Part shown: positions 1 to 22,560 of the stretch, piece after piece
Layout of the letters: every line of letters begins with the position of its first letter
Numbering within the stretch: the first letter of the stretch is position 1
Source: Tricharina praecox
Lineage: Eukaryota
NCBI RefSeq assembly: GCF_024521635.1
Contig: NW_026250440.1
Span: forward strand, 62,001 to 126,000
Direction of reading: 5' to 3'
DNA: 64,000 nt
The notes under the pieces: generated by a model
Told to the model about the DNA's origin: nothing
What the model saw: only the letters and a program-made list of their open reading frames with translations
The model's database searches: none
Translations under genes and position numbers: made by a program

Positions 1-193
1 GATGATGTCAAGCCCCCCCTTCCGGACTCGGATGAAACCACGGTTCCCTTAAACCAACGACAAAGCATCCCGGCATGTTCCCTCGTTAAAGCTTAACACC
101 AAGAAATAAAAATAAAAATAAAAAAGCCATGCACCAACACCGTCCCGCACCCACCACCACCGGCGCCCCACCTCCCCCACCTCACCCGCCCAG

Positions 194-892: not shown

Positions 893-2196
893 CGAATGAT
901 CGAACGAAACAATCGTACCGTGAGGCCAATCGTCTGAGTAGGAAACAACCCGCAAAGGCACACGGACATGGCGCCGTACCAGTGCTGGTGATAGTTGGTG
1001 GAGCACTGTAATGGCATTGGTACACACAAGACGCCGGGGCTTATCCCCTATGCATGTGTAGAGCGCCCTTTCGTCTTCCGTCTACTGCTATGCGATTCCA
1101 GTATTCCAACGTAAGTTCCCTCTCGGGAAGCACGTAGGTACGGCAAGCCCCAAAAAACTCCAGATACCTAGTCTACGGTACGTTCCTAAGGGCCATCGGC
1201 CGCAGTCAATCGTCTGCATAATGTGGTCTCGCCAGATAGAACCGGGTCGATTCCATAAAAGCCGAAATAAAGTCCTGAGCTCCATAGGAAGTGGAAGTGG
1301 AAATGTTCCGTTTGCAGGAGGATACGTCACGTGATACATACTCTACGGGGAGGTGATCACTCGCGATCACTCGTGATTCCTCGCGAGGCGGAAATCATAT
1401 ATAGCCCCTCCGGTTCGGGGCCACCTCGTTGTGACCACGGTGTCGATGATTGCGGTGAAGCGGTGCAAGGAAACACACCAGACAGGACTGCTCGCAGGAA
1501 ATTAGCCCAGTCGGTGTGGAGAAGTTAGAACATGGGTGAGCCAGTCTGGCATATATCATAAGTTCATAACTCGATATCGCGGCGCAGGAAGATCCCCCGG
1601 CAGATGAGCTATCCCGCACATCTATTGTGTTTCGGTGGACCTATAGTAGCCTCGAAGGTTCACAACATAACAAATAATAAATCAACACTTCGGCCAAGTC
1701 CCGATCACAGGTTATCACGCGAGAATATCCGACCACATCTGTTTTGATTCTCGTTCAAAAGTCACATCATCAAGCCATATCGTCACTCGTCAAAGATATT
1801 ACACATTGGTCATATTGGTCATATTGTATTGGTAGTATTTGCATGCCTCGAGAATCCGGTTTATTTTTCACACTTGCTTATGCTTCTGTCTGGTAAAAGT
1901 ATGTCTAGCTGGTCAGAATTAATTCGAAGAAATGAGCTCACCAACATTGCTCGTGCTTCTCAACAACATCGACTCGAACACTGCGTTTCCCGTTTCCCGC
2001 ATCCATTTCTTGGCTTTCGCGAGTGAGCGGCGCTTTGTCGCAAGCCGCAGGCCGCACGGAGTTTGTCTGCGCGAAGGAACGCGCAGTACGAGTGACCGGT
2101 GGCGAGAATCGTATCCGTATCCGTAATCCACCTAGTGTACATAAGTCCGGATCATTTCACAGAGGATTAAGCCTTGTCTCCCACAAAACTCCCAAG

Positions 2197-2520
2197 CCCC
2201 TCAAGCCTCACTTTGTTAGCTGTTGGCACAGACACGACGATCATGATCCTGCTCAGCGCAACGAAAACCCCGAGGCTGAGCGACTCTACTCTACTCTAAT
2301 AACGAGGCTGGCGGATTGAAGGCTAAGCGTTGCCTGAGGTCTCGCACCAGGCTCTCAAGCCCCCTCAAGCCCCTCACTTTGTTGGCTAACTATTGGCACA
2401 GACATGGCGATCATGATTCTGCGAAGTTCAAGCGCAATGAAAACCTCCGGGGCTGGAGGGTCGAGCGCTGTCTCTCGCATCAGGCTCTCAAGCCTCTTAC
2501 TTTGATCGCATATGGCGACA
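2197..2520. repeat. Degenerate tandem duplication, ~160-bp period, two copies plus a partial third
   Basis: cccctcaagcc(cc)tcactttgtt..ttggcacagaca..cgatcatgat recurs near 2197 and 2361; ctctcaagcctcttactttg recurs near 2485. Confidence 0.7.
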
Positions 2521-5500
2521 CCACTTATTTCGTGACGTCGACTGGTATGGGGAAAAAGTTGAATACTTGTAACTTGTTTACAGAAAACCGAGCACACGCC
2601 GGGCACAAACACCCAAGGCCCGGGGATGAAACAAAACCAAAGCCAAAACCAAACCAAAACCACGGTACGTACGTCGGTACCAGGGATTCCCGCCTGGTCA
2701 CCTACCCACTGCAGTACTATCTCTAGAGTAACCTGACGATACATAGAGTACCTTGCTTGACTACTCCAGAAGTCTAGGGCTGAGCGGACGTGAAGCCGTG
2801 TATACCGGTAATATTCAAGGTCCGTAGTTGTTTCTCTGTCCGTCCGTCTGTCTGTCCCGAGTGATGATGCAGTGGCTGAATCGAGGCTGGATAGAGGAAG
2901 TACCTATGTAGGTAATCCGACTTGCCACTTGGCGGGGAGTGCGTTGTCTTTTGCATTACTTTTCTAGATAGGTACATATCGCTCTCACTGCGATTCAAGA
3001 CATAGACCTCGGAGGAGAGGCCAGAAAAATGGGAATGGGAATGGGAATGGTCCACAGTGGGGTGGCCCGGCAGGAGAGGAGAGGAGAGGAGAGGAGCAAC
3101 TGAAGGAAGGAATTTGAGGACAATCTCTGATTTCTGTAAAGTACTCACAGCGAATTTCATACGCATTCGGGGCACTTGAGACGGTTCCATCTCTCCATCT
3201 CAGCGGCGAGGAGTCCGTGAGTCTGTATGGGGTTTACTTCTGCGGAGCACCAACACAACAAAGCTCTCTCGACGGCGGTGATGCTGACTCCTGTCTCCTG
3301 ACTCGTTGACTCGCTGACTCGCTGACTCGCTGACTCCCGAGAGTCTGAGACTGATGAGTGATGACTGGACGGAATCCCGGTCTATTTTTGGCAGAAAATG
3401 TATCTATCACCTTCAAGTTCTGTTATATGGTATTATAGTTACCCGGGAAATTGAGCGGCGTTCGTTTGCTGGATTGCTGGATTGGGGGGCTGGGAGCCGG
3501 TGCGGACGGGATTGCGATCGACGGTGCTAGCCGATAATACATACTGCTGTCTCGCATCACTCGTGGGGTGGTCGGGCAGCCTGCTACTACATACTTTTTA
3601 GAGTATATAGTACTGTAGCCTGTTCGGATAACGATGAATCACTCTCGTACTCTACATACCGTAGCTGACCGAGACAATAGTAGAGTAGAGCATGTAGAGT
3701 ACATACCAGTACGAGGTCTTTTGTCTCGCGGCACAGGCTTCATCACCATCACTATCAGCGATATCGTCCTCACCGAAGCCGGAGGTCGTATTCAACAGTA
3801 TGTACCTGTGTATAGTAGAGTAAAGTATTGCCTCCTAGGAATGGGCCTAATAATGGGCCAACTCAGTCTCGAACTTGGTTATTTGGCCATTCGCGAGACT
3901 AGAAGTGGCCAATTCGGGCTCCAACTTGGCCTTGTCGATGAGGCCCAACTATGATACCTCCTACGGTACTATAGGTACACATCACGAGGACCCGAATATA
4001 CTTTTGCGAACCGCCTTCTTTCCCTGTCGGTACGGAGTCTGGACGCCGCTAACTACCAGGCATTCGGAATGGACTTACCTTGCATTGCTGCGGTTGGGAG
4101 AGAGAGGGAGATCATCAATTGGCCTTACTACTAGTATGGTGCCGGACGCTTTAACGGGCAAGCGAGGGACGAAAAATGACCCTCAGCGCCGACCGCTACT
4201 CCTCTCCACCACAACAAAAAGAATTTTTTTGGAACCGTAGAATGGTAGAGTAGTATGTGTAGAACAGTTCTACGGTTTCAAATTAAATTATTGGTGGTTG
4301 GTGGAGAGGAGTAGGACTTGAAAAGTCGGGTATTGAGTGACGGTGAGTAGAACAACAGGACGAATGAAGAATCAAGTCAATCGAACAAAAACGGGCTGAA
4401 ATATTGGTTTACCACCATAGGTTTTTGCGTGGTCATACATTCGCACGCGATTTCTTGGCGGGCCCATCTCCATTGGACATGCCAAGACACTAGCCCGTTA
4501 GAGTGTCCGGCACCATATAGTACTATTGCTGCTGTTGGTGTCTTGCAAAGGAGGGATTTGGAGCTGAAGGACGCCGAATCGAGTGAGTCCCGAAGCTGCA
4601 GAACGAAGTTGCGATACTTACAAGTACTCTAGACAGCACGAAGCGAAGTTTTTTATGCATGTTGAACTCTCGGACTGGCGCTGGCGCTGTTGTTGTAGAG
4701 CAGTCGTCGTCGAGGAGGAGGAGGAGAGACACTTCGCTATGCAGCCTACTAGTAACTAACCTGTTCGATACTCATTCCCGTGCCAGCATCGCGAGCATTG
4801 GGAAGAAAGAAAAGATAGTCTGGTTTTTTGCATTGCGATTGTTAGGTACATTATACATACATACGGCACCGATGATCCGCGCTCGCCGACACAGCCTTCT
4901 CTAGCCGGCAAACTCTGTATTATATGTACATAAGTGAATCGGCATCGAGCAGTCATGGGCATTGGGCATTGGGCATTGGGATTCAGGTGATCCGGAGTGC
5001 AGGGCGTGCAGAGTAATCGTCAATGTCTCAAATGTGCCTCCCCCGGGAGGGGCGTCCTGCTTCACGCACTAGAAAAGGCAACATGAAGAAGGGAATTTAA
5101 CGTTGGCACTGCACTGGAGCTGGCGATGCACCGTTAGCAGGTATCCCCTCTGGATGGCTGGGGGTTCTCGACGACCGAACACGTGCACACATCACAACTT
5201 CTCTCTCGTTGTCTCGGACAAGTACATACAGACTCAGTTATGTACGGATTCTGCAGGAACAGTTGTTCACGGATTGGCGACGTGTTAGCTGGCGGTACGG
5301 GGTGGGGGGCTGTCGACGACTCGACGGAGGAGGGGAAAGACATGCATGCATGCGAGGAGGGCGTACGGGATTAGGTGGGTTTGCGACGGATGCGACGGCG
5401 CACGTCACACGGAACTCTGGAGTCTGAACTCTGAACTCCTTGCTCACGGCCACGGCTTCTTTTTTTCTTTCGGAACATGGCTCCGCTTGTTCGGCACCGT

Positions 5501-7591
5501 CATCGATTCTGGCTCTCTGATGCTAAGTACTAACAAGTACTCCATACAGCGCCACGCCGAAGCGGAAATAAGTTACGGACGGCGGTGTGTAAATCGCGTA
5601 CATACGAAGGAAGGGTGATCGGCTCAATGAATGTCGGCGCAATGAATATCGATCGGTTCGCACGTAGGGACTAGAGTATGCCAAAGTAGACTGGCCGCTG
5701 GCGGGGATTTCCTTTTTAGTCTCTCTCGCCAGTTCACACTTTGATGTTGTGACGTATTTTTTTTCTCCTTCTTTTCTTTTCTTCTGTAGGTATTCTATTC
5801 TTATTTTTCTCCTGACTCGGACGCTGCTACGGAATCGGGATAAGTTGATTTTGGTTTTTTCTTTCGCCATTGACTTTTCGGCGTGCCTTCGTAAGGCGCG
5901 TTCGAGACAACGCTGTCTCGGAATCGACACTATTCGGGCAACGATAACAACGACAAACTGCCACACGGATCAGGGGCCGAATGAGGATTGGGCTTGCAGC
6001 GGAAGGCTGTGGGCACTGGGCGGCTTGCTCAACGTTGAACTTGTTCTGCAAGCAGGCTGTGTGGGAGGCTCGCCCAGTGTCCTCTACGGAAGGCTGTGGG
6101 GGCTTGCTCGGCTTTCTGTCTATACCTTACTGCCCATGCAGAGGCCGCACAACGTTCTTGGCTTGCAAGTTGCCAGGTTGGCAGATTCTTGCGGTGCTTG
6201 TGTGGCTTCGGAATGATTGTCAGGGGATTTCGCAGAAGGCTGGATCATTCGATCGACAAGTGGAATACTAGGTATCTGCGAATACCACACTCGGCTCCCG
6301 CTACTCCTACCAAGTATATACCGACTATTTCACCTACGGCACCAGTACTCCGTCGCCTGTCCCCGCCGGCTGCGAATGAGAACATCGCGATTTGGGCGAC
6401 TCAGCACCTTTCGCCTTCAATTCTGGAGAAGCATCGTACATACCGGTAACGTATGTACTCGGTTTGCGCGTTCGCAAGCCCATTGACGTTCAACTATGCC
6501 TCCCCGCATGTCCTACATGTAAGCCAACTCAACAGCGTTCGGGCCCTTTCACGTCCAGTTAGCCAGCGTGTTCCGTTCGGAGCTGAACATCTCTCTAGTT
6601 CAGGCACCAAAGCTAACTAAGCACTCGTTCCTAGTCCCTAGTCCTGTCGATCTCTTAAAGCCGGCAACGTTGGCAGCTAGGCAAACGAAAGTGACGTATA
6701 TACAGATCAGGAAGTGCAGGCAAACGGGACAGCCATTCAGACCAGTCGATAGCCGACGAGGCCAATGGTCGTCGGTACATATCATAGCATATGATGTACC
6801 GCCGCACTCCAGGTGATCACCGGCGCCAATGCGGGTGATTTGTTGGGTGAATCAGTGCCGCTAAACCCATCGTGGGCTACCCTCCCGAGACATCACTAGC
6901 GCCGTTTGGCTGGTGACCGAGATCACCTGGGTGACGATTCGTGATGGAAGTCGGGAATGGGCGGAGGGAGTCTGGCTGGAAGCTTTTGGATGGTGGTGGT
7001 GGTGGTGACGAAGATGCTCCAGAAGATACTACCTGCAATTCAGTGACTGTCCCCGGAGGCTACAGATAGTGCCGGACACTTGTCTCCGTTCCCTCAGCTG
7101 GCTCGTGAGAAATGGAGGCGCGGAAAATTAACTATAGCTTCACTTCACGATACGTGGATGCCGATCACCTACCAACACCACAAGGGGGGAGTGAATCTAC
7201 ACGTCAGACATCCCATCGGCAGGGGAGGCATAATCGGCAGCACGCGGTGTGGGAATCGTTCTTGACCTCCTGAGACACTCCCCCGGTGCATCCTAGTCAA
7301 TGTCCTCCCGGCCGTGCAGCGACTTTCAGCTCCGCCCAACACTCCCGGCGCCCTCCGATCGTAGTGTTCCCTCTAGGGGGATTCGATACTTGCTGTGATA
7401 TCCAAAGACTGAAAATCAAGAGAGCCAGAAGTCCGATAAATACCCCCCCTCCGCCGCCGTCAATTACAATCTTCATCCCAACAGCATCTTCTCATCTCAC
7501 ACTCACAACCACATCCACTCTTCACTCTCCACTCTTCAAACAACTCCTTCTCTCTTCTACCATCCCCAAACAAACAATTCCAACTCTCAAA

Positions 7592-8223
7592 ATGGTTTCC
7601 ATCAAGTCCCTCATCGTCTTCACCTTCGCCGCCTTCGCTGTGGCCTCGCCCATCCTCAACGGCGGCGCCGCTGGTATCCAGTCCCGCGACATCATCGAGG
7701 ACACGATCCAGAAATCCGGCAACAAGAACGACTTTGTCAGCCCCAAGTCCAAGCAGGATGACACCGTGAACGCGCCCACCAACGCCATGAACTGCGGCAA
7801 TAACCACAAGATCTCCTGCTGCAACACCCAGGACATGTCCAAGTCCGATGTCACTAGCCTTCTCAACCTCGACCTTAAGCAGCTCATTGAGGTCTCCAAG
7901 TGCGCTCCTATCGCCAAGAACATTCCCATCGCTGGAACTGGCATCGGTGGAACCGTCAATGGTGAGTTTCCTCTTGTCCCCTTACTTTCAACGGACCAAC
8001 TGACCGATCTGTTACCAGCCCTTAGCGGAAACTCTAAGGACACCATGTGCGAGACCGGCCCGGTCGTCTGCTGCCCTGTCGGAAGCGGCAACGTAAGTAC
8101 CCCCCATTCTCGTCCCGCACCACGAGCAGATACTAACCTACCTAATAGAACCAGCAAAACGGCATCGTCAACATCGGCCAGACCAACGTCGCCAACTGCG
8201 TGGTCGTCCAGCGTGCGCTCTAG
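7592..8223 (+). CDS. Class I hydrophobin, 3 exons: 7592-7961, 8019-8092, 8149-8223
   Basis: Signal peptide MVSIKSLIVFTFAAFAVA. After removing two GT-AG introns the protein has 8 Cys in the pattern C-X7-CC-X26-C-X29-C-X6-CC-X22-C-X7. Confidence 0.9.
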
Positions 8224-9727
8224 GTCTAAGCTCAACAGCCTCGACCACACTACGAGTAGTAGGGGATTGAACCGGGATTTAATGGGGGGATTGGGATTGG
8301 GATTGGGATTGGGATTTCTTAACTTTCCTTTGTCTCCGTTTGAGTGAAGGCTCGGGGAACGCTTAATGTTTAACGCTTGTGTTTGGATACATGCTTTACG
8401 AGAATGATAGTTGCTTATTTTAAACCCTACAAAAAACTTGAGTGCCTGCTGTGATCCTATCTGACAATCGTTCGGAGTTCCGCGCTTCGAACTTCGATGA
8501 AGAAGAAGGAGTAGAGTGGTTTGGCTGGAGATCCATCCATCCGAATCCGATCAAAGAGCTCGGCCATTCCTTTCCCTTCCGCCATCTATCTCATCTCCCC
8601 ATTGACAAGCCATCCAGAGCTCGCCGAAAACCGCCGATCAGACCAACCACATCTTCGGCCAGACCTCGAAACCCTAGCCATCCCATCTCGTTCGGACCCG
8701 CATAGTAATAATAGACGGAGCGAGTATTCTAGCACATCACAGAGTATACCTTTGGCGGCCAGCCGCCAAACGTAGAGGTATGAATCATGATAGGTACACA
8801 GACCTGCCAACAGTGCACAGTACAAACTGTTTCGAAAATTTGTTAAAACTGCAGTGAACCGGTTATGGAAGGGGGGGCCCAAACCGAACTGCGTACCGAA
8901 TTAGAACTGGTTTGAATATCCAGTTTGATCTGGTGACCGGTCAAACTGAATAACTGAATATGTAATGGTACATCGTGTAAAGGCGTCTATCGCGAGCAGG
9001 GTTACTTACAAGCCCATATTAGTCCCGATCATGAAAAGCACTCGGACACGATCGAACTGAGTACCGCCGGTATCGCAAGAATTCGTTTCGACTCCGACCG
9101 CTTTCCGCAGTGGGACCATTCTTTCCAGAGAGGTATTTGATGGAGCATGGAGTATTGGGGGCCACGATGCTCCATAGCCGCCGCCGTGGTTGACAACTAT
9201 ATATGAACTATGGACACGGGAAGCAGCCGTGGATTGACTCGTCACGCACGCATCCTAATATTCCGTACGGGCACCTTTAGAGGCCATTACCATCGTGTTT
9301 TTTCGTGTATTTCGTGTATTTAAGGAACACTAGATTGACCACAGCAACGACTGGGTCGGATCAACGATGGATTTGCCTACCTATAGTGCGATACATCTGC
9401 CGTGATACCGCGATGTGTATTACGAATGGTTTCTCCACAGAGCTTTCTTGAATACTGTCCACCAATCGTATTATGCATCTACGGAAAGTGGTAGACTATC
9501 GGCCAAAATTTAAGTTACGTGCCTATTTGGGCGACATACGTGCACGTGGACGTGCTCTTCAGCCTTGGAGTTGTGATTGAGTCTGTCACCCAAACCCCTG
9601 TAGAGGGGAGAGCACGGTAATTTAGCAACATCAGGATTGATCGACACGGTATATATAGGTAGGTCACCGCAGTCGAGTAAGAAGCCGATGTCGTTCTCTC
9701 GTACAGCGGCTAGAGCAACAACATTTG

Positions 9728-10108
9728 GCCAATGGCGCATGCATCTCACTCATGCATGGCTAGGAGGAAAGACCTTTGCTCTGAAAGGAAGAAGACCTCC
9801 GCGTATAAAGTGGGGGGATAGTAAACCACGTTATACGCGTATAACTTGGGGCGGTAGACCAAGTTATACCTTCTTTGGTTTTTTATTTGCTCGTCCGAAA
9901 CCGTCTGTAGCCGGGTTTCGGAGGCATGGGCCTTGGCCATCATGCGTGCCTCTCACACACGCATGGCCAGGAGGAAAGACCTTTGCCCTCTCACAGCAAA
10001 AGGAAGAAAGCCTCCGCGTATAACCTGGGTGGGTAGTAGACCAAGTTATACTTTCTTTGTTTTTTTCTTCCTCATCCACACGAAACCGTCTGTCACCCGG
10101 TTTCGGAG
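9728..10108. repeat. Two tandem ~200-bp diverged units, each built of 4-5 stem-loops
   Basis: Unit 1 is ~9728-9925 and unit 2 is ~9934-10108. Both contain gcatggc.aggaggaaagacctttgc, cctccgcgtataa, gtagaccaagttatac and cgaaaccgtctgt. Confidence 0.85.
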
Positions 10109-13100
10109 AGGCCATCCCCCGGGAGCAAGTCGGCTCTCACCCGACTTGGACTCCCGGAGGAAGGGGGAAAGAACTTTGCCGGCAGCAGAAGAGAGAACGC
10201 CGTCCTTAGACCTTTTCTGCTCAGCCTCGAGGGTTGGATCCGTCTATTGTCGCTGCAACCGTCTACTTTGTAGACCGGCGGTCGCACAGATCCCTCAGTT
10301 CCTCGCTGCTACGGCTGAGCAAGATTGCTCTGTAGGGTTATCCTGGAAGTGAAAAGTAGGGGAGAGAGAGAAGGACTTACCTCGAGGTTTGATCTTGAGA
10401 TCAGGTGAAAGGAAGGAAGGAAGGGGGAGGGAATAGTTGACGAAGAAAGGAAGCTGAGATAGTTGTAAAGAGAAGGAGAGAAGGAGGAGCAGAAAGGGGG
10501 GGTTTTATAGGTGATTTAGGAGCCGCCAGGTTCCAAGCTGGTTTTCGCCGCCGCCAGACGGCTAGTCCCCACCAAAACTTGCTCATCACTTGGAACGAGC
10601 GAGCAAACGTGACGCCAATCGTCGCAGACGGGGTGGAAGTGCCGCGATACCGCTAGACCCCACAAAAACGTACTCATCCGATGTAGCGAATGAGCAAAAG
10701 TGAGGAGCCACGGGGTCGAAGTCCCCTCGCACGCCGAATTAGAGTTTAGTAGTCACTATCACAGGCTGGTATTGCTACCGCCGGCACGCCTTGTCCTCCT
10801 ATGCCGTCCTACAGAATTGTCAGGCCTTCATGGCTGGAATTGACAATGACTCGTCCTAAAAGTTGGCGTTAGTTGCTAGCTGCGGTTCGATCCGCCGTTG
10901 CAACGTTTGCCGAGGTGGGTCATCGTTCCGAGTTCCGCGCTGGTCCTCGGCCAGCTCCCCCACCGGTTCTAGGACGGGTGGTCTTGATTGCTCGACCGAT
11001 CTGGTCCCACTGTGTCCCCAACGTGGCCGCATAGAAACTGAGTCTCGGCATTCCGAGTCCAGCGGCGAAGCAACAGTTTTGCAATCATGAGTTATCACTC
11101 TCTAAAAACCGAGGGATGCATAAGTATTGTCTGCTGGAGCGAAATTAATATACCTAGTACCGGCTGATCCCAATCCGGACACGAGCTTGGGCCAGCAACG
11201 CCATCTCACGCGGCGAGTGATAACTCAACCCGGCAATAGACTGGGAGAGGGTGAGAGCCAGGGCGAGAAACAGAAAGAAAATACGAGACGATCGAGGAGA
11301 CGGATCGGAGGACGTAGAGAATGGTAACTACGGGTGTCGAATAGGTAGACTGTCAACCCCCCATCTCAGGTCTTTCTTCTGTGTGTGCTCCCTTCCTCGT
11401 CCCACGCCTGTCGGCCTGGAGTTGGCAAAGAGCCCTCGTAAAAGTTAAAACCACCACCACTCAAACACCCGTTTACTCGCCAATGCCTCTCCAGACAGGG
11501 AAGCGGGTTGACAGAAGGGGAGCACAAAAGGAGAGAGGGGATTTAGAAGTTAATTATCTCTGTCGTTCTATCCATATATTTCAACACACCCCATCGACCC
11601 AAACCCCCCCCCCGAAGGCTGAACAAGATTAGAAACGAGTGACGCAATATGCGTCAACACAGCCGAGCGGCGAGCGAACAAGTATCGCAACAACCCCAAG
11701 GCATGATGAGTAAGATATATAGAGCGACATAGGCTAAGGATGGAAGGCAGATGTCAATAAATGTTATGCCTCTGAATATTCTGTTTCTTCTACATAAACC
11801 ACCCATGTTGCCTGTTCTACTCCTCATTTTTCCGCTTCTTATCCTTCTTCCAATCCTTCTCCTGCTTCTAGTTCTTCAACTTCTTCAGCTTTTTCAACTT
11901 CTCCTTCTCCTCCTCGCACGTTCCTCCTTCCTCCTTCCGCACCGCCCGCGGCCCAACAGTAGCGCTAAATCTCCAACAGAAACCAACAGAAGCCACCGTC
12001 ACAGCGAATAATAACCCCGCTCGCACGGCAGCGCCCGCAGGCACCGCTGGTGCGTTGCCGCGAGCGGCAACGGCAGAAACATTCTGCGATTAGTTTCCGC
12101 CCTCCACGGGCGCAATGTGTGAGCGGAGCTCTTGATGATCGGCTGCAGACCCGTGGATAGGTCCAAAAAAAAAGCTGCTAGACTCCGGGTCTGTAGAGGA
12201 AGTTAGTTAGTGTCTAGCTCTCGAGCTGGCAGCCTGGCAGCAGCCTGCCCGCGCCACAGGGGTAAGACTGAGGCAAGAGAAGATGGGAACGTACCTGAGT
12301 CCAGCGGAAGGTCTCCATTGTTTCTTTGTTCCACCATTAGGGTCGCTGTGGTTGACGGTAGTGACTGGCGTCGCAACCGCCTATCGGTGCCGCACGAGGC
12401 GGCGAATCATCACTTATGCCAATCTATGCAGCTTTAGAAATGGTTCGTCAACGGGAAGGAATCAAGACGGAAACAATTACGTGGCATACTATCTGAGTAG
12501 TTCCGAAAGCCGCCAAGGAAGGGAAAGTGAAGGTGCCTCGAGGCTTATGTGGTGGATTAACACCACTAGGCCATCGAATGTGGGCGTAGAAAGTAAGGTG
12601 AGTAATAAGACTTTCGCACCGAGGCGTGATGTGGATGATGAAGTTGTTGTTGCGAAGGAGAGAGGAAGAAGATGAAGGAGATGAAGGAGAGGGAGGAGAG
12701 GAGGGAGTGGTTACGGTGGGTTTTGTGGGGTCGGCAGAAGTTCAATCCCATTCTAGGTCTAGGGCACGCAGTCGCTAGCGGGGTTGCACGAGGCTCACGT
12801 GCCGCTTGATTGTATCACACGGGTTGCCAGGAGCTCCGTGGCTAAGGCTGGCGCATACCACTGTATATGCAGCGGTATGCTGTAACCTGAATCTATAAAT
12901 TCTAGCATATTTCTACGAATTGAAATTTGAAACCCTGCTGCCCGCCGCCACCAATGATGATCAGACTGTCGATACAATCGCCGCCAACATGGAACGACGC
13001 CCAACGAACACCGCCACAGATTACTGTCGAACTGTCGAAAATACCTTACCTACCCCCCGCCAGCACAACTCCAAATTTCGATCGACTACTGGTGATTGAG

Positions 13101-13225
13101 GATCCTGACTGATTACCGGCTGACCGACTACTGGCTGATCGACTCTGACCGATTACCAGTGTTTGGGGAATTCTGGCCCTGGGCTATTGCGGTGCAAGTT
13201 GTACTGGCTTGCGGGTCTGGATGGA

Positions 13226-13565
13226 TGTCAACGGATTGTGACTGGTGAGGGAGAGGAAAAAAGAAAAGATGTAGTGGGTGAGGTAGTGGTGGTAGTGGTG
13301 CTTGCTGCATCCCCCTCCCCCGGCGCTCGCAAGCCTGTCTACTCGCCAACGCCTCCCCAGAGTCCAGACTGGGAAGCGGGTCGACAGAAGGAGAGCACAC
13401 AAGGAGAGAGAGAATGTAGAGGCTGGTGGTCTATTCTGTAGATTATGAGAGAGAAAGAAGACGAAGACGAAGAAGAAGTAGACGACGGAGAGAGCAGGCG
13501 ACTCGCTGGCCTGCCAACGTTGATGCCCACTATATACTAACTACATCCGGTGCCTCCCGCTGACA
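13226..13565 (-). mobile_element. Possible LTR relic (Ty3/gypsy-like TG..CA ends)
   Basis: Bounded by TGTCAACGG / CCGCTGACA (8/9 inverted match). Has a minus-strand TATATA (~13531-13536) followed by a CT-rich tract. Segment 13343-13412 is a diverged copy of 11477-11540. No target-site duplication seen. Confidence 0.35.
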
Positions 13566-15241
13566 AATCCTCTAGGCTCCCTCTCCCTCCTCTCGCCGAC
13601 AGGTTCTACATCGCTCGCCACAGTGGGTTTGCGTGGTGGCGGGTTTGCTTGGCGGTGGGGTTGAAACGTCGAACAATACTATGGCATTATAGACGTTTGC
13701 CGTCCTTTAATCTTCCATGCTCCACTGCCGTCTCATGCAACGATGCTTAACCAAAAAAATCGCCGAACCGGGGCTCGAACCGCAGTCCCCAAACAAAAAC
13801 CAAAAACCTTAACCACCCCCGGTGGCCCGTGGGGCGGCTTAGAAATCCCGATAGCTGGACCGATGTCCATGCTAACTCCGCCGGGTGCGTGACTACTCGG
13901 CCACGCAGGGGTTTTTTCCGTGCTGGAAATATGAATTCAAAAATCATAAAGTGGTGGGTGCCCCGCGCCTGACACGCCCGCCCGCCGTGATGGACAGGAA
14001 CAACGACGAAGTGTCACGGCCAGGTGCTTAACTTTACTTGCACGTTTTACGATGTATTCACTAAGAGATGCGCTTTTACTAACCTGACCGGCGCACATGC
14101 CTCTATGAAACGTCTCCACCGCATTCATTGGCTCTATAGTAGCACATTTTCACTTATCTACCAACACGACTATGTACTCTATGTGTAAGTCTATGCTCGG
14201 ATGCACGACACAGAGGTACTCGGCTACGGTATACACGTGCCCGTCGTGTGGCAGTATCGGGATTCCACACAAACAACAGGATGAATATTGCGAGTGATGC
14301 GGTATGCATATGCTGAGAGATTCTGCGAATGGCCGTCCGCAGCTCCAGCTACTACGATCGGGGAATGGCCGAGCGGGATTCTAACCTCCCTTGTGGCTAC
14401 ACGGTCAACAGTATGTGCGCCCAGAACCGCGGGAGAAAACAATAAAAGGTTTACTACAGTCGACATCTTCTCACGGCTGATGTCCACTTATGACTCGTGA
14501 GGAGTAGTTAAGTATGTGGGTACATACTGGCCCTGTCAACCACGGGTGGACACATACCTATGCCCTGTCTCTGTTAAACGAAACATGATGCATCGAGCTA
14601 CAGTTCTCGTGAATAGTCATGGTCTGTCGATATCCGAGATCCCCGAGTATGTAGAGATAGGGGGCATACCTAGAGGCTAGATACCAGTTGACTCTGGCTC
14701 TGGCTAGCTACCTAGAGCTATCTCAGAGCTCGCGGGAGAACGTAGAAGAAGCCCATTACCCACCTACCGGGTCTCGTGATGCTCATACCTCGCCTTTCGT
14801 CCAAAGAGGTTTCGGACTCCGGAGTATGCCGGGCATAGGTAATACCGGGCATAGTTAATGCGGGCAGGTCTTCGATGTACCTACTCTATAACTAGCAGGT
14901 GACAATGACCGATCTCGAAAAGCGCGAGCGTCCGGGCCCCGGCTGTAATCCATAGCGCAGCGGCGCGAATCTGGGGAAGTCACAGCTGCAGGGGAGCTTC
15001 ACTCCGATTCGAAAGGGCAACTGAATGGAGAAGTTAGAACTGATCGCCTAGCAATGCCGACGCGCGGGGCGGTTGTACCCGACTGTACGTACTAGCCGCC
15101 GATATGGTAGGCCGCTGATAGGTAGCCGGTAGCTCAGCGGCTGCACTCATGTGAGCGTATTCCAAGGGGGAGGAGGAGAGGGGAATGGTATCATGCGCCT
15201 AAAAATGGTCTCCGGGGTCCTGATAGGACTGAGTTGCGCTA

Positions 15242-15319
15242 GGTATCCTGCGGTATGATCCTGCGGTATGATCCTGCGGTATCCTGCGGTATCCTGCGGT
15301 ATCCTGCGGTATCCTGCGG
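15242..15319. repeat. Minisatellite (GGTATCCTGC)x7, two units carrying a 3-nt insertion
   Basis: Read directly from the sequence. Confidence 0.95.
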
Positions 15320-16188
15320 GAGCGCCCGGACTCGCACTGCAACGGCCATGCAGGCCGGTGGGTTCCTGCTTTAGGGGGTTCGCGGAACTCGGCCATGCTG
15401 CTGAAGAGTCAAGACAGCTAGGTAGGAGAATATCAACCTTATTCTTGGTGGGGGGCACATGTCCAACTGCAACTGCTCAGCTGCAGGCACCGGCCGCCGA
15501 CCAACGGCCTTGCATAGTGCGGGGGGTGGGGCAGCGATGTCTCCTAGCATGTACTAGGTGTCTATCCGTCGAGCAGCAGCTACGGGGCCAGTGACATGTG
15601 CCATTCCTCCGGCCTCGGACAGCAGTTGGCGCCAGCGATGCAATGACATCGTCTTGCCGGATAATATCAAGCTGCCGGCTAGCTGTGGATACCACAATGG
15701 ATAGATAGGCTAGAATGTCGGCGCCTCCCAGCGCACAACGCAAATGACCGACCCGCGTGTCACCTGGAAACACGAGCAGTGCATCTCCACATGTGCATGT
15801 CCCTTCCCCCTGGCCTTAGGTGATCACCGAGAACCCCTATCAAGTCCATCCAGTCCATCCATCCGTCGCCTCGAAGTTCGAATGCGAGATTGCCGGTTCA
15901 CCAGGTACGTCGGGCTCGTTCATTACCGCTCATCCAGTCATCTGGACGAAGCCGCCGGTTACACGAAGAATGTCGCCGCCGGGTGGAAGAACGTTCGCAT
16001 CAGCTGGGAAAGGCGGCCGGATCATTCGAGCCAATCTGCACGTTGACACCTCCCTATTCCAGGGGTTGCCGCCGGATGCACGCAAGGATTGGCACGATTG
16101 GCCCTCAAGGAACTTCCCGCCGATCTGCCCCTGCCACATGCTCGCGGGGGTGGATTGCGGCGATATGTCTATGCGGATAGACAGTCTA

Positions 16189-16312
16189 TTCCCATGCACT
16201 CTGTTCCTATCCACTCCATTCCCATGCACTCTGTCCCTATCCACTCCATTCCCCTGCACTCTGTTCCTATCCACTCCATTCCCCTGCACTCTGTTCCCAT
16301 GCACTGTGTTCC
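16189..16312. repeat. 30-bp minisatellite TTCCC(A/C)TGCACTCTGTTCCTATCCACTCCA, ~3.5-4 units
   Basis: Read directly from the sequence. It generates the repetitive spurious ORFs at 15820-16565. Confidence 0.95.
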
Positions 16313-16782
16313 TACGTCTGCACTCTGCAGGTATGTGCTCTACAGGAGATACGCCCTACTGCGCTGCGGGGAGTCGCCTAACTTTCCTCTTGTGTATCCG
16401 ACTTCGATGATCCTGGGATTTGCGCTGGAGCGGGTAGCTGCCTGGAGGCGTCCTGCCCTTCGGAGCCGCGCCTTCACCTCCACCACTCTCCCCCTCTCTC
16501 CCCGCAAAGAAATTATGCCGATACAGGTAGCCAAACGTTTTCCTCCGCTTCATGATGTCTCCTAACTCGGGATTAGATCTGTATCATATGCATCTTTACG
16601 GCCTAGTTCGGGGCCGGCGGGCGCGGCATCGATTGGAGCTTCCTCCTCGTCGGCTGCTGGTCCATCCGCATAACGGATGCTGTCGAGCATAACGTTGAAC
16701 CCCCGAAATTCGGTATAGTCTGCTCGTGTAGTGCACGGGAAAACGATATCCTCCTGTCAGCGAGCTGTGCCTTCCCCGATTG

Positions 16783-16864
16783 GGGACCCTTTCGATCCCT
16801 CCCCCGCTGTCATTCTGTTAGGGACCCTTTCGATCCCTCCCCCGCTATCATTCTATTAGGGACT
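16783..16864. repeat. 38-bp tandem duplication in the fungalysin promoter region
   Basis: gggaccctttcgatccctcccccgct(g/a)tcattct(g/a)tta x2 followed by gggac. Confidence 0.9.
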
Positions 16865-16992
16865 CGCGCCCGTGAGCCTGCCTCGCCATCGAGAAACGAG
16901 TTGAATCTGCCATTTAAACATCAGAAGCCCCGCTCATCCATGGGCACCACTCCTCACCCAAACCCACCCCAGGGCCTCCACTCTCGTTCAAG

Positions 16993-19118
16993 ATGCGCTT
17001 CTCCACCGCATTCTCTCTCGTTTGCCTCGCCGTCAGCGTCTCTGCCCATGCCGAGCGCAAGTCGTACGCCATTCCCGAGACGCAACATGGTGTCTACCTC
17101 AACTCGCAGCAGCACGAGCGAGCACGCCGGCTGCGTCCTCGTGCCGACGGCGACGCAGCTTCCGGCCCAGAGGAGATCGCGCTGCAACACCTCAAGGAGA
17201 TTGCTCCCGGTGCTGAGGTCCGCCTCCGGCCGGATCAGTACACCGACGAGGACACCGGAGTCTGGCACGGCTACTACACGCAGACCCTAAACGGCCTCGA
17301 CATAGAGAACGCCCAGGCTAACGTCAACGTCAATAAGGACGGGACTATCCTCTCCAGTGGCTCCAGTCTGCTGAAGGGCAAGGTGGACGCTCCGCCAATC
17401 GTCAAGAGGGCGGACCTCATCGATCCTATCGAGGCGTTGAAAGGTGCCATCGCCAAGTTGGGATACCCGCTCAACGTTGAGAATGCCGAGGCTGTTCCTG
17501 AGCAGTCCTTGACTGGCAATGGACAGGCGTACGTGCTCGTCGGTGTCGAGGGAGTTCAAGAAGTAAGTTGCAACTTCCGCGGTCTGCATCACACCCGATA
17601 CTGATGGACGTCAATCTGCAGGAGCCTAGGGCGGACCTGGTCTACTACGCAACCGGTACCGGTGTCAAGATTGCATGGCGCCTGGAGACCGATCTCGACG
17701 AGAGCTATATGATCACCTATATCAACGCTAAGGATGCTGCCGATGTCGTTGGTGCAATCGATTATGTCTCCGACGCCCAATACAATGTCTAGTGAGTGCC
17801 GGCGACTTGTCACCCGAAATTCGCATGATGGTGGTGGCTAACCGATGATGAAAGTCCGTTCGGTTTCAACGATCCCACGGATGGCGAGCGAGTGCTCGTC
17901 ACGGATCCCGCCAACAGCAAGACCTCACCGAACGGCTGGCACACAGCCGGCGACGTCACGTACACCGACACACGCGGAAACAACGGCTGGGCGCAGGAGA
18001 ACTGGGATGGAGGCAGCGACTTTGAGAACAACACCCGTCCCGACGGGGGCAAAGGGTTGGACTTTGACTTCCCTTGCAACATTTCCTCGCAGGATTCAAG
18101 ATCCTACACCGACGCCGCCATCACCCAGCTGTTCTACACCTCAAACATGTTTCATGATCTCCTCGAGCTCCTGGGCTTCACCGAGGCTGCCGGTAACTTC
18201 GAAGAGGTCAACACTGGCTCCGGGGGAATCGGAGGGGACGCTGTCCAGCTCAACGCCCAGGATGGCTCCGGATTCAATAACGCAAACTTCCTGACTCGCC
18301 CCGACGGCATCAGGCCACGCATGAGGATGTACCTCTGGAACACCGCTGGAAGCATCCTCCGCGACGGAGATTTCGATGCCTGTAAGAACCCCTCCCCATC
18401 ATCCGGAGATTGCGCAACACACTAACTCGGTCCGCCCACAGTGATCGTTATCCACGAATACACCCACGGACTTTCAAACCGTCTCACGGGCGGCCCATCC
18501 ACGACCAGCTGTCTGACCACGCTCGAAGCCGGGGGCATGGGCGAAGGCTGGGGGGACTTCTTCGGCAACGCGATCCGGGTCAAGCCCAACGACACGCGCA
18601 GCACGGACTACGTTCTGGCGGGGTGGACGAACGGCAAAGGGATCCGGACGTACCCATACTCGACCTCGCTGCTGACCAACCCAACGCTGTACTCAACCGT
18701 CGGCACAACGGGGTTCACAGCCGTGCACTCGATCGGCAGCATCTGGGCAACCATGCTCAACGAGATCATGTGGAACCTCGAGGAGAAGCATGGGTACCAG
18801 CGCGACGCTATGCCAACGTTCAAACAGGGCTCGTCGATTCCTGTTGGCGGAAGACAGCTCGCTATGAAACTCGTCCTGGAGGGCATGAAGTTGCAGCCTT
18901 GCAGGCCTACGTTCTTGTCTGCGCGTGATGCAATCGTAGATGCGGATAAGGCCCTCACCGGCGGAGAGAATGAGTGCGAGATCTGGGCGGGCTTCGCCAA
19001 GCGCGGGCTCGGGATCAATGCCGCCGCTGAGGGGGTCACTGGGCTTCGTATCGACGACTTTACGGTGCCGGAGCAGTGCAAGAGCAACAGGAAGAGGGGA
19101 GTGCTGTTTAGAGCTTGA
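16993..19118 (+). CDS. Secreted fungalysin metallopeptidase (M36) with FTP propeptide; exons 16993-17562, 17622-17791, 17855-18381, 18442-19118
   Basis: Signal peptide; propeptide [41 protein letters not shown]; zinc motif [41 protein letters not shown]. Three GT-AG introns keep the frame. Confidence 0.96.
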
Positions 19119-19318
19119 GAGACCGTAGTGTGCTGTTGTTTTTCGGGGTTAGGCATTCGGGCGTTTTGTTTTTTGCTTTCTTTCTTTCGCGGTAGGGATA
19201 TTGCATGCATGTCTGTATGGGATTTACTTAATTTGCTACCTTGTTGGGGTTCGAAGATCAAAAGTCACCGGTCTCCTAGATCTCGGTGATCAGTGCATCG
19301 TGCCTCGTGCCAACCGCC

Positions 19319-19378
19319 ATCCTCGGCCTCATCCTCATCCTCATCCTCATCCTCATCCCCATCCCCATCCCCATCCTC
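19319..19378. repeat. Hexanucleotide microsatellite (CATCCT/CATCCC)n
   Basis: Read directly from the sequence. Confidence 0.9.
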
Positions 19379-20056
19379 CGCGCCCCTGGCACCGCCTTTG
19401 CGCCAAAGCCTCGGTCAGGCTTCCTCCTTCTTCCCTTCTGCTTTTGGAAGTCCACGAGTCTGCTACTCGCTGATCGGAGTCCTAGGTACTACCGGTAGTA
19501 TACTGACCCTCTCGCAGTCCCAATGTCCCATTCATGATTCCGCTCCAAAGATCTGCTCCACTACTTGTCATAATAGTAGGTGGTAGCAGCCTGTGGTCAT
19601 GGGTGCCAACAGCCGAAGATAGCGCGGCCAAGGGCAAAAGCGCACGCTCGTATGTAGAGATTGTAAGCTTGTATGATGTAGGTATGTATGATTTAAGCTG
19701 GTCTGGAGATATTGATCATTGAAGAATCGGGGTTGGAGAAGCGCAGGCGCGGAAGTGGGGCTTGGAAGTGCGAGCTTGGAAGTGCGGGCTTGAAAGCGGG
19801 GCGACGTAGTTAGGGCGGGGTTGAGACAATATGACGGCAGGAAACTTGATACTTCGACAGAATTTGGAACTTCTGGAAGCTGGAGACTGTGGAAGCGATG
19901 GTCTCTTACACCCAGCGAGCTGGCAACACGCCTCATACACATGGGGGATATAGATCGGTAGGTACAGATAGAGTACAGTTGACCTTGGAATACCTATTGG
20001 CAGTCATCCGGAATGCGTTGCAAGAGTCAATCAACTCGCACAGTTAAAGTCATTGA

Positions 20057-20232
20057 ACGAATGACTCTAGTCAATGAAGGAATGACTACAGTCACCGAGC
20101 AGGAATGACTCCGGTTACCCGAGCAGGAATGACTCTAGTCACCAAGCAGGAATGACTCCAGCCACCGAGCAGGAATGAATCAAGTCAATCAGCAGGAACG
20201 ACTCCACTCACCGAGCAGGAATGGCTGAGTAA
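20057..20232. repeat. 23-bp tandem array, ~8 units, consensus GAGCAGGAATGACTCTAGTCACC
   Basis: ATGACT-type core recurs at 20061, 20082, 20106, 20129, 20152, 20175, 20198 and 20221. Confidence 0.85.
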
Positions 20233-20958
20233 ATCTACGAGACTCCCAGACTCCCAGTCGCCTTGGCCGCCTCCCCGTGCTCCTCGCCACTAACCGTCTA
20301 ACCAATCCACCTGGCAACCCGCCCGCCATAATTCCACCCGGGTCCTCAAACGCCGCCATACAAATGTACTCGCGGAACCCATTCCATTCTGTCATTCCAT
20401 TCGAAGGTTTGAGGACCCGTATTTTGACACCTTTAAATGTCTGAGTATAGTACATGTAGGTACTCTGGAGTCTAGGTACTCTAGGCACAGTACTGGCAGC
20501 CCCAGCTATTACCTACCCTTGTAAAAAAAAAGGGAGGTTTTTTTAAACGTGAGCGGTGGGTTGGGAAATGGTTGCGCGATCATTGGATTTCACAAACGGC
20601 CCCGCGGTATTGCCCAACTATTTCGCAACTATTGCATCTAGAATAACGTGAGCCACGTAAAACGATGCGGAAATAAAATGATGATAGACAGTACACCCAT
20701 TTTAAATTGTAAACTCGGTAAAAAGCCAGACACTGTGTGAATTTGTCATACGTTGATTTAACGCTTAAGTAAACAGGAACTGGTGGAAATATAAAAACAC
20801 AAGTTCGAGATATATCGTTGGTGCTCACTTAAGCGTTTTCTTGGCATTTTTCTACCGTTGTCGTCACGTTTCGACAATTTAAACGTTGTCTTGGCATTCT
20901 TCTACTGTTTTCCGGTGTGGGGAGCGATGAGCGAGCTGCCACGGGAGGGAGTAATAAC

Positions 20959-21137
20959 AGGAATGACTGGGTCAATCCGCGAGATGACTCTAGGAATGAC
21001 TTAGTCAGTCCGTGAAATGACAATAGTCATCGAACAGGAATGACTGAGTCAGTCCGCGAGATGACTCTAGGAGTGACTGAGTCAATCCGTGAAATGGCCC
21101 TAGGAATTACTTAGTCAATTCGTGAAATGGCTCAGGA
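20959..21137. repeat. 33-bp tandem array, ~5 units, consensus AGGAATGACTGAGTCARTCCGYGARATGACTCT
   Basis: Units start at 20959, 20992, 21036, 21069 and 21102. Confidence 0.85.
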
Positions 21138-21269
21138 GCTGTGGGAGGAGGTGTCGGCAACAGGAGGAGGTGAAGGACTCCTGTCGGTGGGTGAAGACCA
21201 ATGTGGTTAGTAGACGGCACCAACGTTGGCGGGCATGGTGGGCATGGCGGGGTCGTATGCTCTCTTAGC

Positions 21270-22560
21270 CATCCGCCTCTTCTTCTTTTTCTTCTTCTTC
21301 TCCCACAACTCCTCCTCCCCCCACGTCTCCTCCTCCCCCCGCAACTCCTCCCCCCCGCAACTGCTATTCCCACCCCCAGCTATTCCCACTCCCACCTATT
21401 CCCCCCCACTGCAACTGCTATTACCCCCCTTGCCGCAACTACTTTCGCTAATAGCACTTCTCTCATATAGCTCCTACTACTGCTGCTGCTGATGGCACTT
21501 CTCTCAAGGCTCTACTCCCGCCACAGCTGCTATTCTCCCTTCTGCCGCAACTACTACTCTCGCTAATCTTCCTCTGTATTGTAGCTCCTACTCGCGCCGC
21601 AACTACTACTGCTACTCCCACTGATAGCTCATTTCTCATAGCTCCTACCCCCGCCGCAACTGCTACTCTCGTCGCAACTGCTACTCTCGGCGCAACTCTA
21701 TTCTGGCCGTATATCTACCCTCGCTGATAGCTTCTCTCTCTCATAGCTTTTCTCGCCGCAAGTCTACTTTCGGCGCAACTCTATTCTCCTCTCCTACACG
21801 CACAACCCCTCCTCTCGGCGCAATACATAGTGATTACCCTTCCCTCTCCTCACTACTACATGCCCTGCTGGACCCGCCGCTGATACAGCACTGGAATCGC
21901 CTAAGAAATGCACTCTCGCTAGAAATGCCCCCTCGCTACCGTTGTTACAGTACTGGATTTGCCCTGGCATTTGCCCTCGAATTTGCCCTCGTGCTAACGT
22001 GTATACAGTACTGGCTGCGCTGTGAATATCCCCCACTCACTACTGCTGCTCGCCCGGCTGCTCACCCGGCTGGCCCCTCTGTGATCCCCCCCCACCCTCC
22101 ACCTTACTGCTACTGCTACTCCAGCTGATATCTCATTACTCATATAGCTACTTCTCCCGCTGCCATTCTACTCCTGCTGATAGTTTCTCTCTTTTATAGC
22201 TAGCTTTGCTGCATCTCTACCCTCGCCGCAACTGCTATGTACTCTCCGCGCAACTCTATTCTGGCCGCAACTAGAGTCCACCCTCGCTGATAGCTTCTCT
22301 CCCAAACAGCTTTTCTAGCAACAACTTTATTCTCCATTCCCCTCGGCGCAATACATCATCTCGGCACAACACATCCACTTGGCACAACACATCCACTCAG
22401 CACAACTCATCCTCTCGGCGCAACTCCTCCTCCCACCGTAGCTCCTACTCTCGCCAATAGCTTCTCTCTCTTATAGCTTTTCTGGCCGCAACTGTATCCT
22501 CGCCGCAACCTTCCTCTCGGCGCAACCATTCGTCCCGCCGACAGCTCCTCCATCTCTCTA
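21270..22560 (-). pseudogene. Decayed repetitive coiled-coil ORF (E[E/Q]LRRE-type repeats) inside the TIR element
   Basis: Many ccgcaact / gatagc..ctctc / tagctcctac units. Minus-strand fragments read EELRGEEETWGEEELWE and EELRREDELC*VDVLCQVDVLCRDDVLRRGE, with stops and frameshifts. Confidence 0.45.

Follow-up and report, generated by a model that had tools for sequence, protein, structure and literature searches.

A window of 64,000 nt of nuclear DNA from a cup fungus (Pezizales-like) holds, at positions 9728-10330, an array of three tandem, diverged units built from about 12 abutting hairpins. We put at about 0.4 the probability that RNA polymerase II makes an unannotated non-coding transcript here, read probably from the minus strand, and that the array forms its structured core; such a transcript could be an lncRNA or else a long leader that carries no convincing ORF.

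Neighbouring hairpins of the array are separated by gaps of 0-1 nt. Unit A (9728..9934) consists of H1A (9733-9762, core 9738-9758), H2A (9763-9800), two copies of H3 (H3A1, 9800-9839, and H3A2, 9839-9869), a T-rich linker (9870-9893) and H4A (9894-9922). Unit B (9935..10118) repeats this order with H1B (9935-9968, core 9941-9965), H2B (9970-10015), H3B (10018-10051), a T-rich linker (10052-10080) and H4B (10081-10105). The diverged unit C (10119..10330) begins with H1C (10119-10157), whose core CAAGTCGG/CCGACTTG (10126-10148) encloses the loop CTCTCAC; a conserved stretch GGAGGAA..GAACTTTGC (10156-10179) and a hairpin at 10184-10221 follow, and the right end is a long nested hairpin (10219-10320) with the inner element GTCTAC ttt GTAGAC (10261-10275). 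A first-pass annotation, made from the letters of the DNA alone, had described a duplicated unit; every stem that it named was found where it had been placed, the duplication of A and B is real (139 of 166 alignment columns identical, 23 gap columns, BLAST E 1e-20), and the diverged unit C adds a third member. Trained on A and B only, a covariance model recovered this third unit at 10110-10207 with 19.7 bits (E 0.0023), the runner-up match in the window scoring 12.9 bits (E 0.14). The plus-strand signature TCTCAC(loop)..GGAGGAA..GAMCTTTGC has three matches in the window (9744..9779, 9951-9986 and 10135-10179) and none in 100 shuffles.

The individual hairpins differ in how they have changed. 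H1 pairs CATGCAT with ATGCATG in unit A and CATGCGTG with CACGCATG in unit B, an A-T pair of the former having become G-C in the latter; the stem of H1C differs from H1A and H1B at 4 of its 7-8 pairs, all of them Watson-Crick. These H1 changes were read directly, as MAFFT gave no single structural register for the three hairpins. In H2, GGAGG..CCTCC surrounds CCTTT/AAAGG; the inner stem of H2B has been extended by 8 inserted nt and closes the same loop as H1B, CCTCTCACA, and the outer stem is missing from unit C. All 11 pairs of H3 are formed in H3A2; among the three paralogous copies, all at one locus, one pair of the 11 is doubly changed (G-C, U-A and, as a third state, C.A on the plus strand or U.G on the minus strand) and one is broken, in H3A1. 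The unit B copy of H4 lacks the two outer pairs of the unit A copy. Thus the double changes claimed earlier for H1 and H3 are correct, as is the statement that a C.A mismatch in H3 turns into G.U on the minus strand; stems also persist, as had been noticed, while loop lengths vary (7/9/7 nt in H1 and 12/9/12 nt in H3). The covariation comes from three paralogues at one locus, few in number and of common ancestry.

At an overall divergence of about 16%, stems have undergone roughly a third of the change seen in loops and linkers: counted on a hand alignment of A and B, 5 of 74 stem positions changed vs 14 of 71 loop/linker positions (Fisher p 0.026). Two of the five stem changes make up one compensatory pair, another is a G.U on the minus strand, and no indel between A and B falls inside a stem. 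The H1 loop TCTCAC is kept in all three units while the stem around it has been rewritten, and unit C retains TCTCAC, GGAGGAA and GAMCTTTGC. Only 3 of the 118 CTCAC sites in the window lie in loops of stems of at least 6 bp, and all three are in the array. Slow stems, indels confined to the regions outside them and an H1 stem swapped around TCTCAC fit selection on a folded single strand, and together they would indicate constraint on pairing; the evidence for it is real but thin. The earlier proposal of selection on RNA or ssDNA structure is thus borne out in part: the signal of pairing constraint speaks for it, but no Rfam family matches the array. With Rfam 15 (4227 models, among them those for ribozymes, snoRNAs, SRP, RNase P/MRP and telomerase RNAs) nothing was found inside 9728-10330 at E<=1 or, in a search around the array, at E<=10; the only family reaching its gathering score in the whole window is U2, at 63410-63602.

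Hairpins are more frequent in the window than expected by chance, and they concentrate at the array. We counted 26 distinct perfect hairpins of at least 8 bp, whereas 200 dinucleotide shuffles had 9.8 +/- 3.1 and never more than 20. At the array, one 600-bp span takes in five of the 26, all of them within 300 bp, a number that none of the 200 shuffles reached (maximum 3). When the array (9728-10320) was folded against dinucleotide shuffles, as had been advised in the first-pass annotation, it was more stable on both strands, with z-scores of -4.31 (plus) and -8.01 (minus) and none of 100 shuffles equally stable on either strand. For units A, B and C separately the z-scores were -3.6, -2.6 and -1.7 on the plus strand and -5.1, -3.7 and -3.2 on the minus strand, the latter being lower in all three units; the flanks 9300-9727 and 10510-10800 gave only -0.2 to -1.2. 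The excess stability ends at the array borders, and in its folding the array behaves as a structured non-coding RNA does. The preference for a strand is weak at the level of local hairpin segments, 7 of 12 being more stable on the minus strand and 5 of 12 on the plus strand.

The array sits in an 8-kb stretch without coding signal. A plus-strand hydrophobin-like gene ends 1.5 kb to its left, and the nearest coding signal on the right, also on the plus strand, begins more than 6 kb away. On the minus strand a promoter-like region (10384..10522) points into the array: TATAAAA at 10511-10505 is followed by a tract of at least 80% pyrimidines. The same arrangement of TATA and pyrimidines is present 5' of the hydrophobin-like ORF, and similar pyrimidine tracts precede same-strand ORFs at 3010-3113 (minus), 16199-16298 (plus) and 21243-21413 (plus); the minus-strand element is a putative promoter. 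An alternative candidate motif on the plus strand, TATATATAGG at 9651..9660, lies about 70 nt upstream of unit A and is common by chance. Because no transcript was seen, the promoter and strand of the array are deduced from common motifs. A putative minus-strand intron of 38 nt (GTAAGT..CAG, 10380-10343) was rejected; it is short and has no CTRAC branch word, which is present in two hydrophobin introns. Elsewhere in the window, spacers hold tandem palindromic arrays of TGACT-NN-AGTCA (20059-20226 and 20956-21140) and further arrays of factor-type words (TGACTC five times at ~3290-3330 and ATCGATACG words at 28843-28956); the window also contains a 120-nt palindrome (4196-4316).

The array shows no sign of coding for a protein. 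Among 82 scanned stop-to-stop ORFs of at least 55 aa (88 are listed for 8.4-16.5 kb) none reached a Pfam cut-off, and no ORF of this region had a codon log-odds score above 13, known genes scoring 30-167. For a 164-aa frame (9858-10349, plus strand) the protein collection, which includes relatives at 86-89% Rrn3 identity, yielded 29 word-sharing candidates, none with E<=0.01. Named relatives, ranked by Rrn3 identity, are Sphaerosporella brunnea (77%), Geopyxis carbonaria and Rhizina undulata (63%), followed by Morchella, Tuber and Pyronema. Indel lengths between units are not multiples of three. The ARAGORN program found no tRNA gene in the window, which speaks against a tRNA gene or a tRNA-derived SINE.

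BLAST, self-matching and the covariance model all failed to find a second copy of the array within the 64-kb window. A degenerate form of the signature had single matches in 2 viral and 28 metagenome contigs; we regard these 30 matches as chance because, compared with 9000-11200, none of them gives an alignment longer than 45 nt or an E-value under 0.048. The window's own locus is absent from the metagenome matches, so the metagenome collection does not include this genome's copy. The H3 pattern matched one viral contig (205 kb) in an AT-rich hairpin with no further likeness, and this match was discarded. Three soil metatranscriptome runs, compared with positions 1-20000 at 90% likeness, gave only pieces of 25-30 nt at 2675-2801 and 8287-8316, and are uninformative on expression.

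How could such an RNA have arisen and what might it do? We suppose that a module of about 200 nt with abutting stem-loops was duplicated twice, and that drift of the sequence left intact the pairing and a single loop word, which reads CUCUCAC on the plus strand and GUGAGAG on the minus strand. Transcription would more likely use the minus strand: it would begin within the pyrimidine tract (~10470-10400) and cross the array leftwards, from 10330 to 9728. The product could serve as a multivalent platform on which an RNA-binding factor meets one and the same loop in several similar hairpins. Read on the minus strand, this loop is GUGAGAG; it is present in at least four hairpins (H1A, H1B, H1C and H2B) and looks like a 5' splice site; a hydrophobin intron in the window begins with GTGAGT. 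Because of this resemblance one could speculate that the RNA titrates U1 snRNP or another factor that reads the loop. Distinctly improbable, in our estimate, is the full version of this idea, a lineage-restricted fungal lncRNA that acts as a multivalent decoy or scaffold for such a factor, is convergent towards the hydrophobin-like gene and possibly regulates it in antisense. Several observations run against the RNA reading. The conserved arms of H3, H4 and H2 fit protein-binding DNA sites equally well; the outer stem of H2 is lost in unit C, and single copies have lost one pair of H3 and two of H4; the spacers of the window hold further palindromic arrays that resemble transcription-factor sites; and template switching can make and mend stems without selection (PMC8794818).

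An unlikely explanation is that the array is a functionless by-product of mutation, in which local tandem duplication and template switching at replication (quasi-palindrome correction) repeatedly created and re-perfected short inverted repeats in a fast-evolving spacer; the hairpins would then be present in the DNA without being read. As described by Monttinen and Loytynoja 2022 (PMC8794818), template switching yields perfect stems and multi-base compensatory changes in a single event, and the array has likenesses to such hairpins in its many perfect arms, its pair-keeping double changes and the one-step lengthening of the H2B stem. The 8-nt insertion responsible for that lengthening also reproduces the loop (9 nt) of hairpin H1B, which lies 28 nt upstream; unit A contains an extra 36-nt copy of H3, and the homologue of the H4 loop in unit C is now the perfect palindrome GTCTAC/GTAGAC. 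The neighbourhood of the array (1.3 kb) is a patchwork of 19 direct repeat families and 22 inverted pairs, and local tandem duplications are common in spacers of the window (12 self-matches). However, neither the slower change of stems relative to linkers nor the retention of a loop word whose stem was replaced is predicted by switching alone, and indels outside the stems likewise speak against it; repeated switching could mimic these patterns in part. Being a route of mutation rather than a function, template switching is compatible with an RNA role. Quite unlikely, too, is a cis-regulatory module acting at the DNA level, where duplicated palindromic sites would bind dimeric transcription factors and hairpins would be incidental. 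The arms of H3 (GTATAAC.TGG), H4 (CGAAACC) and H2 are nearly invariant among copies, the centre-to-centre spacing of H4 is equal in A and B, a CCAAT word is present at 9730, and clear TGACT-NN-AGTCA, TGACTC and ATCGATACG arrays exist in the same window, the first of these (20059-21140) sharing with the hairpin array its location in spacer DNA, tandem duplication and dyad symmetry. Yet the TGACT-NN-AGTCA dyads have spacers of 2 nt and invariant arms, whereas the hairpin array has long, variable spacers of 7-13 nt and varying H1 arms. The pattern of fixed spacing and conserved arms holds for H4, in part for H3 (similar arms, but a spacing of either 9 or 12 nt) and not for H1, where arms changed and the spacer was kept; a dimeric DNA site would show the opposite. 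Furthermore, no recognisable gene has the array upstream of it, and the array lies downstream of both promoter-like motifs aimed at it.

The first-pass annotation had also offered the leader or packaging region of a mobile element, an idea left unsupported because no TIR or LTR ends, target-site duplication, transposase or gag/pol were found nearby. In a wider form, the array would be what remains of a mobile element, or an inner portion of one (subterminal repeats of a transposon, end hairpins of the Helitron type or a decayed MITE cluster), read as ssDNA or as transposase sites, which we consider rather improbable. Subterminal repeats of DNA transposons and end hairpins of Helitrons repeat short words many times over, in direct and inverted orientation, across a few hundred bases, and dense words of this kind resemble subterminal transposase-binding regions; the array is likewise dense in them, 350 bp holding six occurrences of the H3 11-mer and four of the H4 word, and the surrounding 8 kb have no coding signal and contain other repeats, while the 120-nt palindrome points in the same direction. 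On the other hand, the array differs from such elements in having no ends, target duplication, transposase or second copy in the 64-kb window: a scan for TG..CA ends with a 4-6-bp target duplication and a terminal inverted repeat of at least 4 nt gave no candidates; no convincing TIR was seen, and the sole flanking inverted repeat (9437-9450 / 10320-10333, 86% complementary) has no adjacent duplication; no transposase, Rep/helicase or gag/pol domain occurs in the 82 scanned ORFs; and neither the signature nor H3 has a true match in viral contigs, nor the signature in metagenome contigs. A sub-threshold zinc-ribbon match 4 kb away was the only hint of a mobile element among the scanned ORFs. 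A minus-strand telomerase RNA (TER), with TAACCCTA (10340-10333) as template just past the promoter-like tract, is extremely improbable and was rejected as main reading. The word spans 1.33 telomere repeats, and ~100-130 nt separate it from the putative start; but its single occurrence, on the minus strand at 10333-10340, compares with 1.09 expected by chance per window, and such an 8-mer turned up in 66 of 100 shuffles. No Rfam telomerase family matched even at E<=10, and ATAAGT, the Neurospora-type TER 3'-end signal, is absent from the minus strand between 2529 and 12411 (nearest listed sites at 2523 and 12412). According to the available part of Qi et al. 2013 (PMC3592445), TERs of Pezizomycotina are long non-coding RNAs without apparent ORF (2049 nt in N. 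crassa), and the fungal core comprises a template-pseudoknot and a P6/P6.1 three-way junction with a 4-bp stem and a NUNGN loop; the likeness of the array to them is that of a long non-coding locus with the TAACCCTA word, and a triplicated 200-nt unit is not among the TER features described there.

For a structured non-coding transcript, the closest parallels are in mode of working and do not imply membership in a family. Tandem stem-loop repeats are found in regulatory non-coding RNAs such as the A-repeat of Xist, the stem-loops of Drosophila roX and the bacterial decoys CsrB/RsmZ. The array would resemble these in its series of similar short hairpins that present the same loop word, in stems free to change if paired and in having no ORF; it differs in that it is known from DNA alone, has an unrelated sequence, comes from a filamentous ascomycete and belongs to no Rfam family.

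Structured lncRNAs defined so far in filamentous fungi are very few, and none is known from Pezizomycetes. If stems of the array were indeed rewritten around a kept loop word, it would offer a clean and testable unit of RNA-protein recognition. If the array is untranscribed, it would be a compact natural case of duplication and template switching imitating a covariation signal, and thus a caution for genome scans that call RNA genes.

All the stems named in the first-pass annotation were found in the array, a chain of abutting hairpins at 9728-10330 in non-coding spacer. The duplication it claimed, of a ~200-nt module with hairpins H1-H4, held for tandem units A (9728-9934, with an extra internal copy of H3) and B (9935-10118), in whose alignment 139 of 166 columns are identical and 23 are gap columns; its 'further stems' turned out to be a third unit, C (10119-10330), much more diverged than A and B. 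A covariance model trained on the H1-H2 portions of A and B alone recovered unit C (19.7 bits, E 0.0023); the next-best match in the window scored 12.9 bits (E 0.14). Each of the three units carries one match to the degenerate signature TCTCAC..GGAGGAA..GAMCTTTGC; these are its only matches in the window, and 100 shuffles gave none.

Counting perfect hairpins (stem of at least 8 bp, loop of 3-14 nt), we saw 26 distinct ones in the window versus 9.8 ± 3.1 across 200 dinucleotide-shuffled versions. A single 600-bp span at the array held five of the 26, while no span in any shuffle held more than three. Folding energy of 9728-10320 (593 nt), relative to dinucleotide shuffles, bore out the proposed structure, with z of -4.31 on the plus and -8.01 on the minus strand. 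Taken singly (plus; minus), unit A gave -3.6; -5.1, unit B -2.6; -3.7 and unit C -1.7; -3.2. The flanks were ordinary (9300-9727, -1.0; -1.2 and 10510-10800, -0.4; -0.2), and the array structure is real and sharply bounded.

Elsewhere, a ~120-nt palindrome at 4196-4316, with 16-bp outer arms CTACTCCTCTCCACCA / TGGTGGAGAGGAGTAG around an inner 12-nt inverted repeat, scored z between roughly -6 and -8 on either strand (sliding window, few shuffles); it could be a MITE-like or structured element. Another small group of perfect hairpins, at 28843-28956, is due to repeated ATCGATACG/GATACGTATC words and thus looks like a motif cluster, not RNA.

With units A and B aligned by hand, segment by segment, substitutions affected 5 of 74 paired positions versus 14 of 71 in loops and linkers (Fisher p 0.026), and all indels were confined to loops or linkers. 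Two of the five stem changes make up the A-T to G-C double change reported earlier for H1; one is the C.A of H3, which does become U.G on the minus strand; the other two are outermost H4 pairs lost in unit B. Among the three copies of H3, 9 of 11 pairs are invariant. The compensation proposed for H3 stood for one pair, seen in G-C, U-A and wobble/mismatch states; another pair is broken in the copy at 9800-9839.

H1 gives the strongest single signal of pairing constraint. Its stem in unit C, CAAGTCGG/CCGACTTG with outer CCGGGAG/CTCCCGG, has no mismatch, and differs at 4 of 7-8 pairs from the other H1 stems (CATGCAT/ATGCATG and CATGCGTG/CACGCATG), while the loop word TCTCAC is kept in all three units. 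CTCAC words number 118 in the window (59 per strand), and just three, all in H1, sit in a loop closed by a perfect stem of at least 6 bp. In unit B, H2 and H1 share the same loop (CCTCTCACA), so that a fourth hairpin displays the loop word. These comparisons are suggestive of constraint on pairing; the events are few and come from paralogues at one locus, which falls short of proof.

Both transcription of the array and its strand we infer from sequence features. Three metatranscriptome runs compared with the sequence gave no relevant coverage, a result that bears neither way on expression. On the minus strand, a promoter-like region points into the array: TATAAAA (10511-10505), then a tract of at least 80% pyrimidine (10522-10384). 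The same layout precedes the hydrophobin-like ORF to the left, and comparable tracts lie at 3010-3113 (-), 16199-16298 (+) and 21243-21413 (+), each upstream of a same-strand ORF. Minus-strand z is the lower in all three units, and two mismatches become G.U on that strand; local hairpin segments are more stable there in only 7 of 12 cases. The first AUG of the putative minus-strand RNA, at 10115, opens an unconvincing 83-codon frame. TATATATAGG, ~70 nt upstream of the array on the plus strand, offers an alternative promoter reading.

The window is fungal nuclear DNA. Its long open frames hold Rrn3, COPA/B, Dsc3, Rix1, peptidase M16 and Rpb3/AC40-type domains, and a U2 spliceosomal RNA gene lies at 63410-63602 (-; Rfam match over the full length, 149 bits, E 1e-30). 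Identity of the Rrn3 fragment is 77% with Sphaerosporella brunnea (Pezizales, Pyronemataceae), 63% with both Geopyxis carbonaria and Rhizina undulata, and less with Morchella and Tuber, which places the source among Pezizales-like ascomycetes. The hydrophobin-like gene (7593-8221, +; ATG at 7593, stop at 8221) has an eight-cysteine pattern, a signal-peptide-like start and two short introns (GTGAGT..TAG and GTAAGT..TAG, branch words CTGAC/CTAAC); its PF01185 match is weak (E 0.01, under the Pfam cut-off).

Around the array, some 8 kb (8400-16500) carry neither Pfam match nor codon-bias signal: none of 82 scanned stop-to-stop ORFs of at least 55 aa (88 listed) reached the Pfam cut-off, and no ORF had codon log-odds above 13 (recognisable genes, 30-167). 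Pyrimidine tracts alternate between strands there (10384-10522, -; 11799-11957, +; 12621-12720, -), and the stretch may harbour several clustered non-coding transcription units. It also holds a dispersed 80-nt repeat (11468-11547 and 13334-13420; 80% identity, 1.9 kb apart) and, directly past the promoter-like tract, a 58-nt unit present twice (10550-10607 and 10641-10698; 76% identity), each copy containing a small hairpin in which G.U pairs form on the minus strand. The 291 nt around these copies were no more stable than shuffles. A long pyrimidine-rich, internally repetitive stretch (21243-22540; several 60-170-nt repeats, 66-82% identity) precedes a plus-strand ATG near 22567.

We tentatively favor, at a probability of roughly 40%, an unannotated non-coding Pol II transcript of which the array is the structured core. 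This RNA would probably be read from the minus strand, with its repeated hairpins offering one shared loop to a binding factor. An array that is a mutational by-product of tandem duplication and template switching, a documented mechanism (PMC8794818), seems rather unlikely: a patchwork is what this would leave, and the extra H3 copy in unit A, the H2B insertion that lengthens the stem and copies the neighbouring loop, and the new perfect palindrome in unit C fit; template switching alone, however, predicts neither stems that change more slowly nor a kept loop.

Palindromic protein-binding DNA sites would account for the near-invariant H2-H4 arms, and clear factor-type arrays exist elsewhere in the window; the behaviour of H1, spacing that varies and the absence of a gene with the array upstream of it nevertheless make such sites improbable. 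Tandem TGACT-NN-AGTCA dyads within GGAATGACT.. words (20059-20226 and 20956-21140; periods ~34 and ~77 nt) resemble bZIP-type binding sites repeated within a spacer, and five tandem GCTGACTC words (~3290-3330; TGACTC-type sites) lie directly past the purine-rich tract 3010-3113, which precedes the minus-strand ORF 2355-2903. We likewise doubt a mobile-element relic: LTR-type or TIR-type ends with target duplication were not found for the array, nor was a second copy within the 64-kb window, and only chance matches came from pattern searches of viral and metagenome contigs. Telomerase RNA, considered because of TAACCCTA at 10340-10333 (-), is highly improbable; the word is at chance level (1.09 expected per window), and neither Rfam at E<=10 nor the accessible part of PMC3592445 gave other support.

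The Rfam check proposed for the array returned no family match even at E<=10; it contains no tRNA and encodes no credible protein (Pfam scan, codon log-odds, homologue search). No array of similar kind was found in Rfam and the collections searched, and a broad literature search gave only general papers on inverted repeats, none of which mentions Pezizomycetes. If transcribed, the array would join a known kind, non-coding RNAs in which protein-binding stem-loops are repeated.
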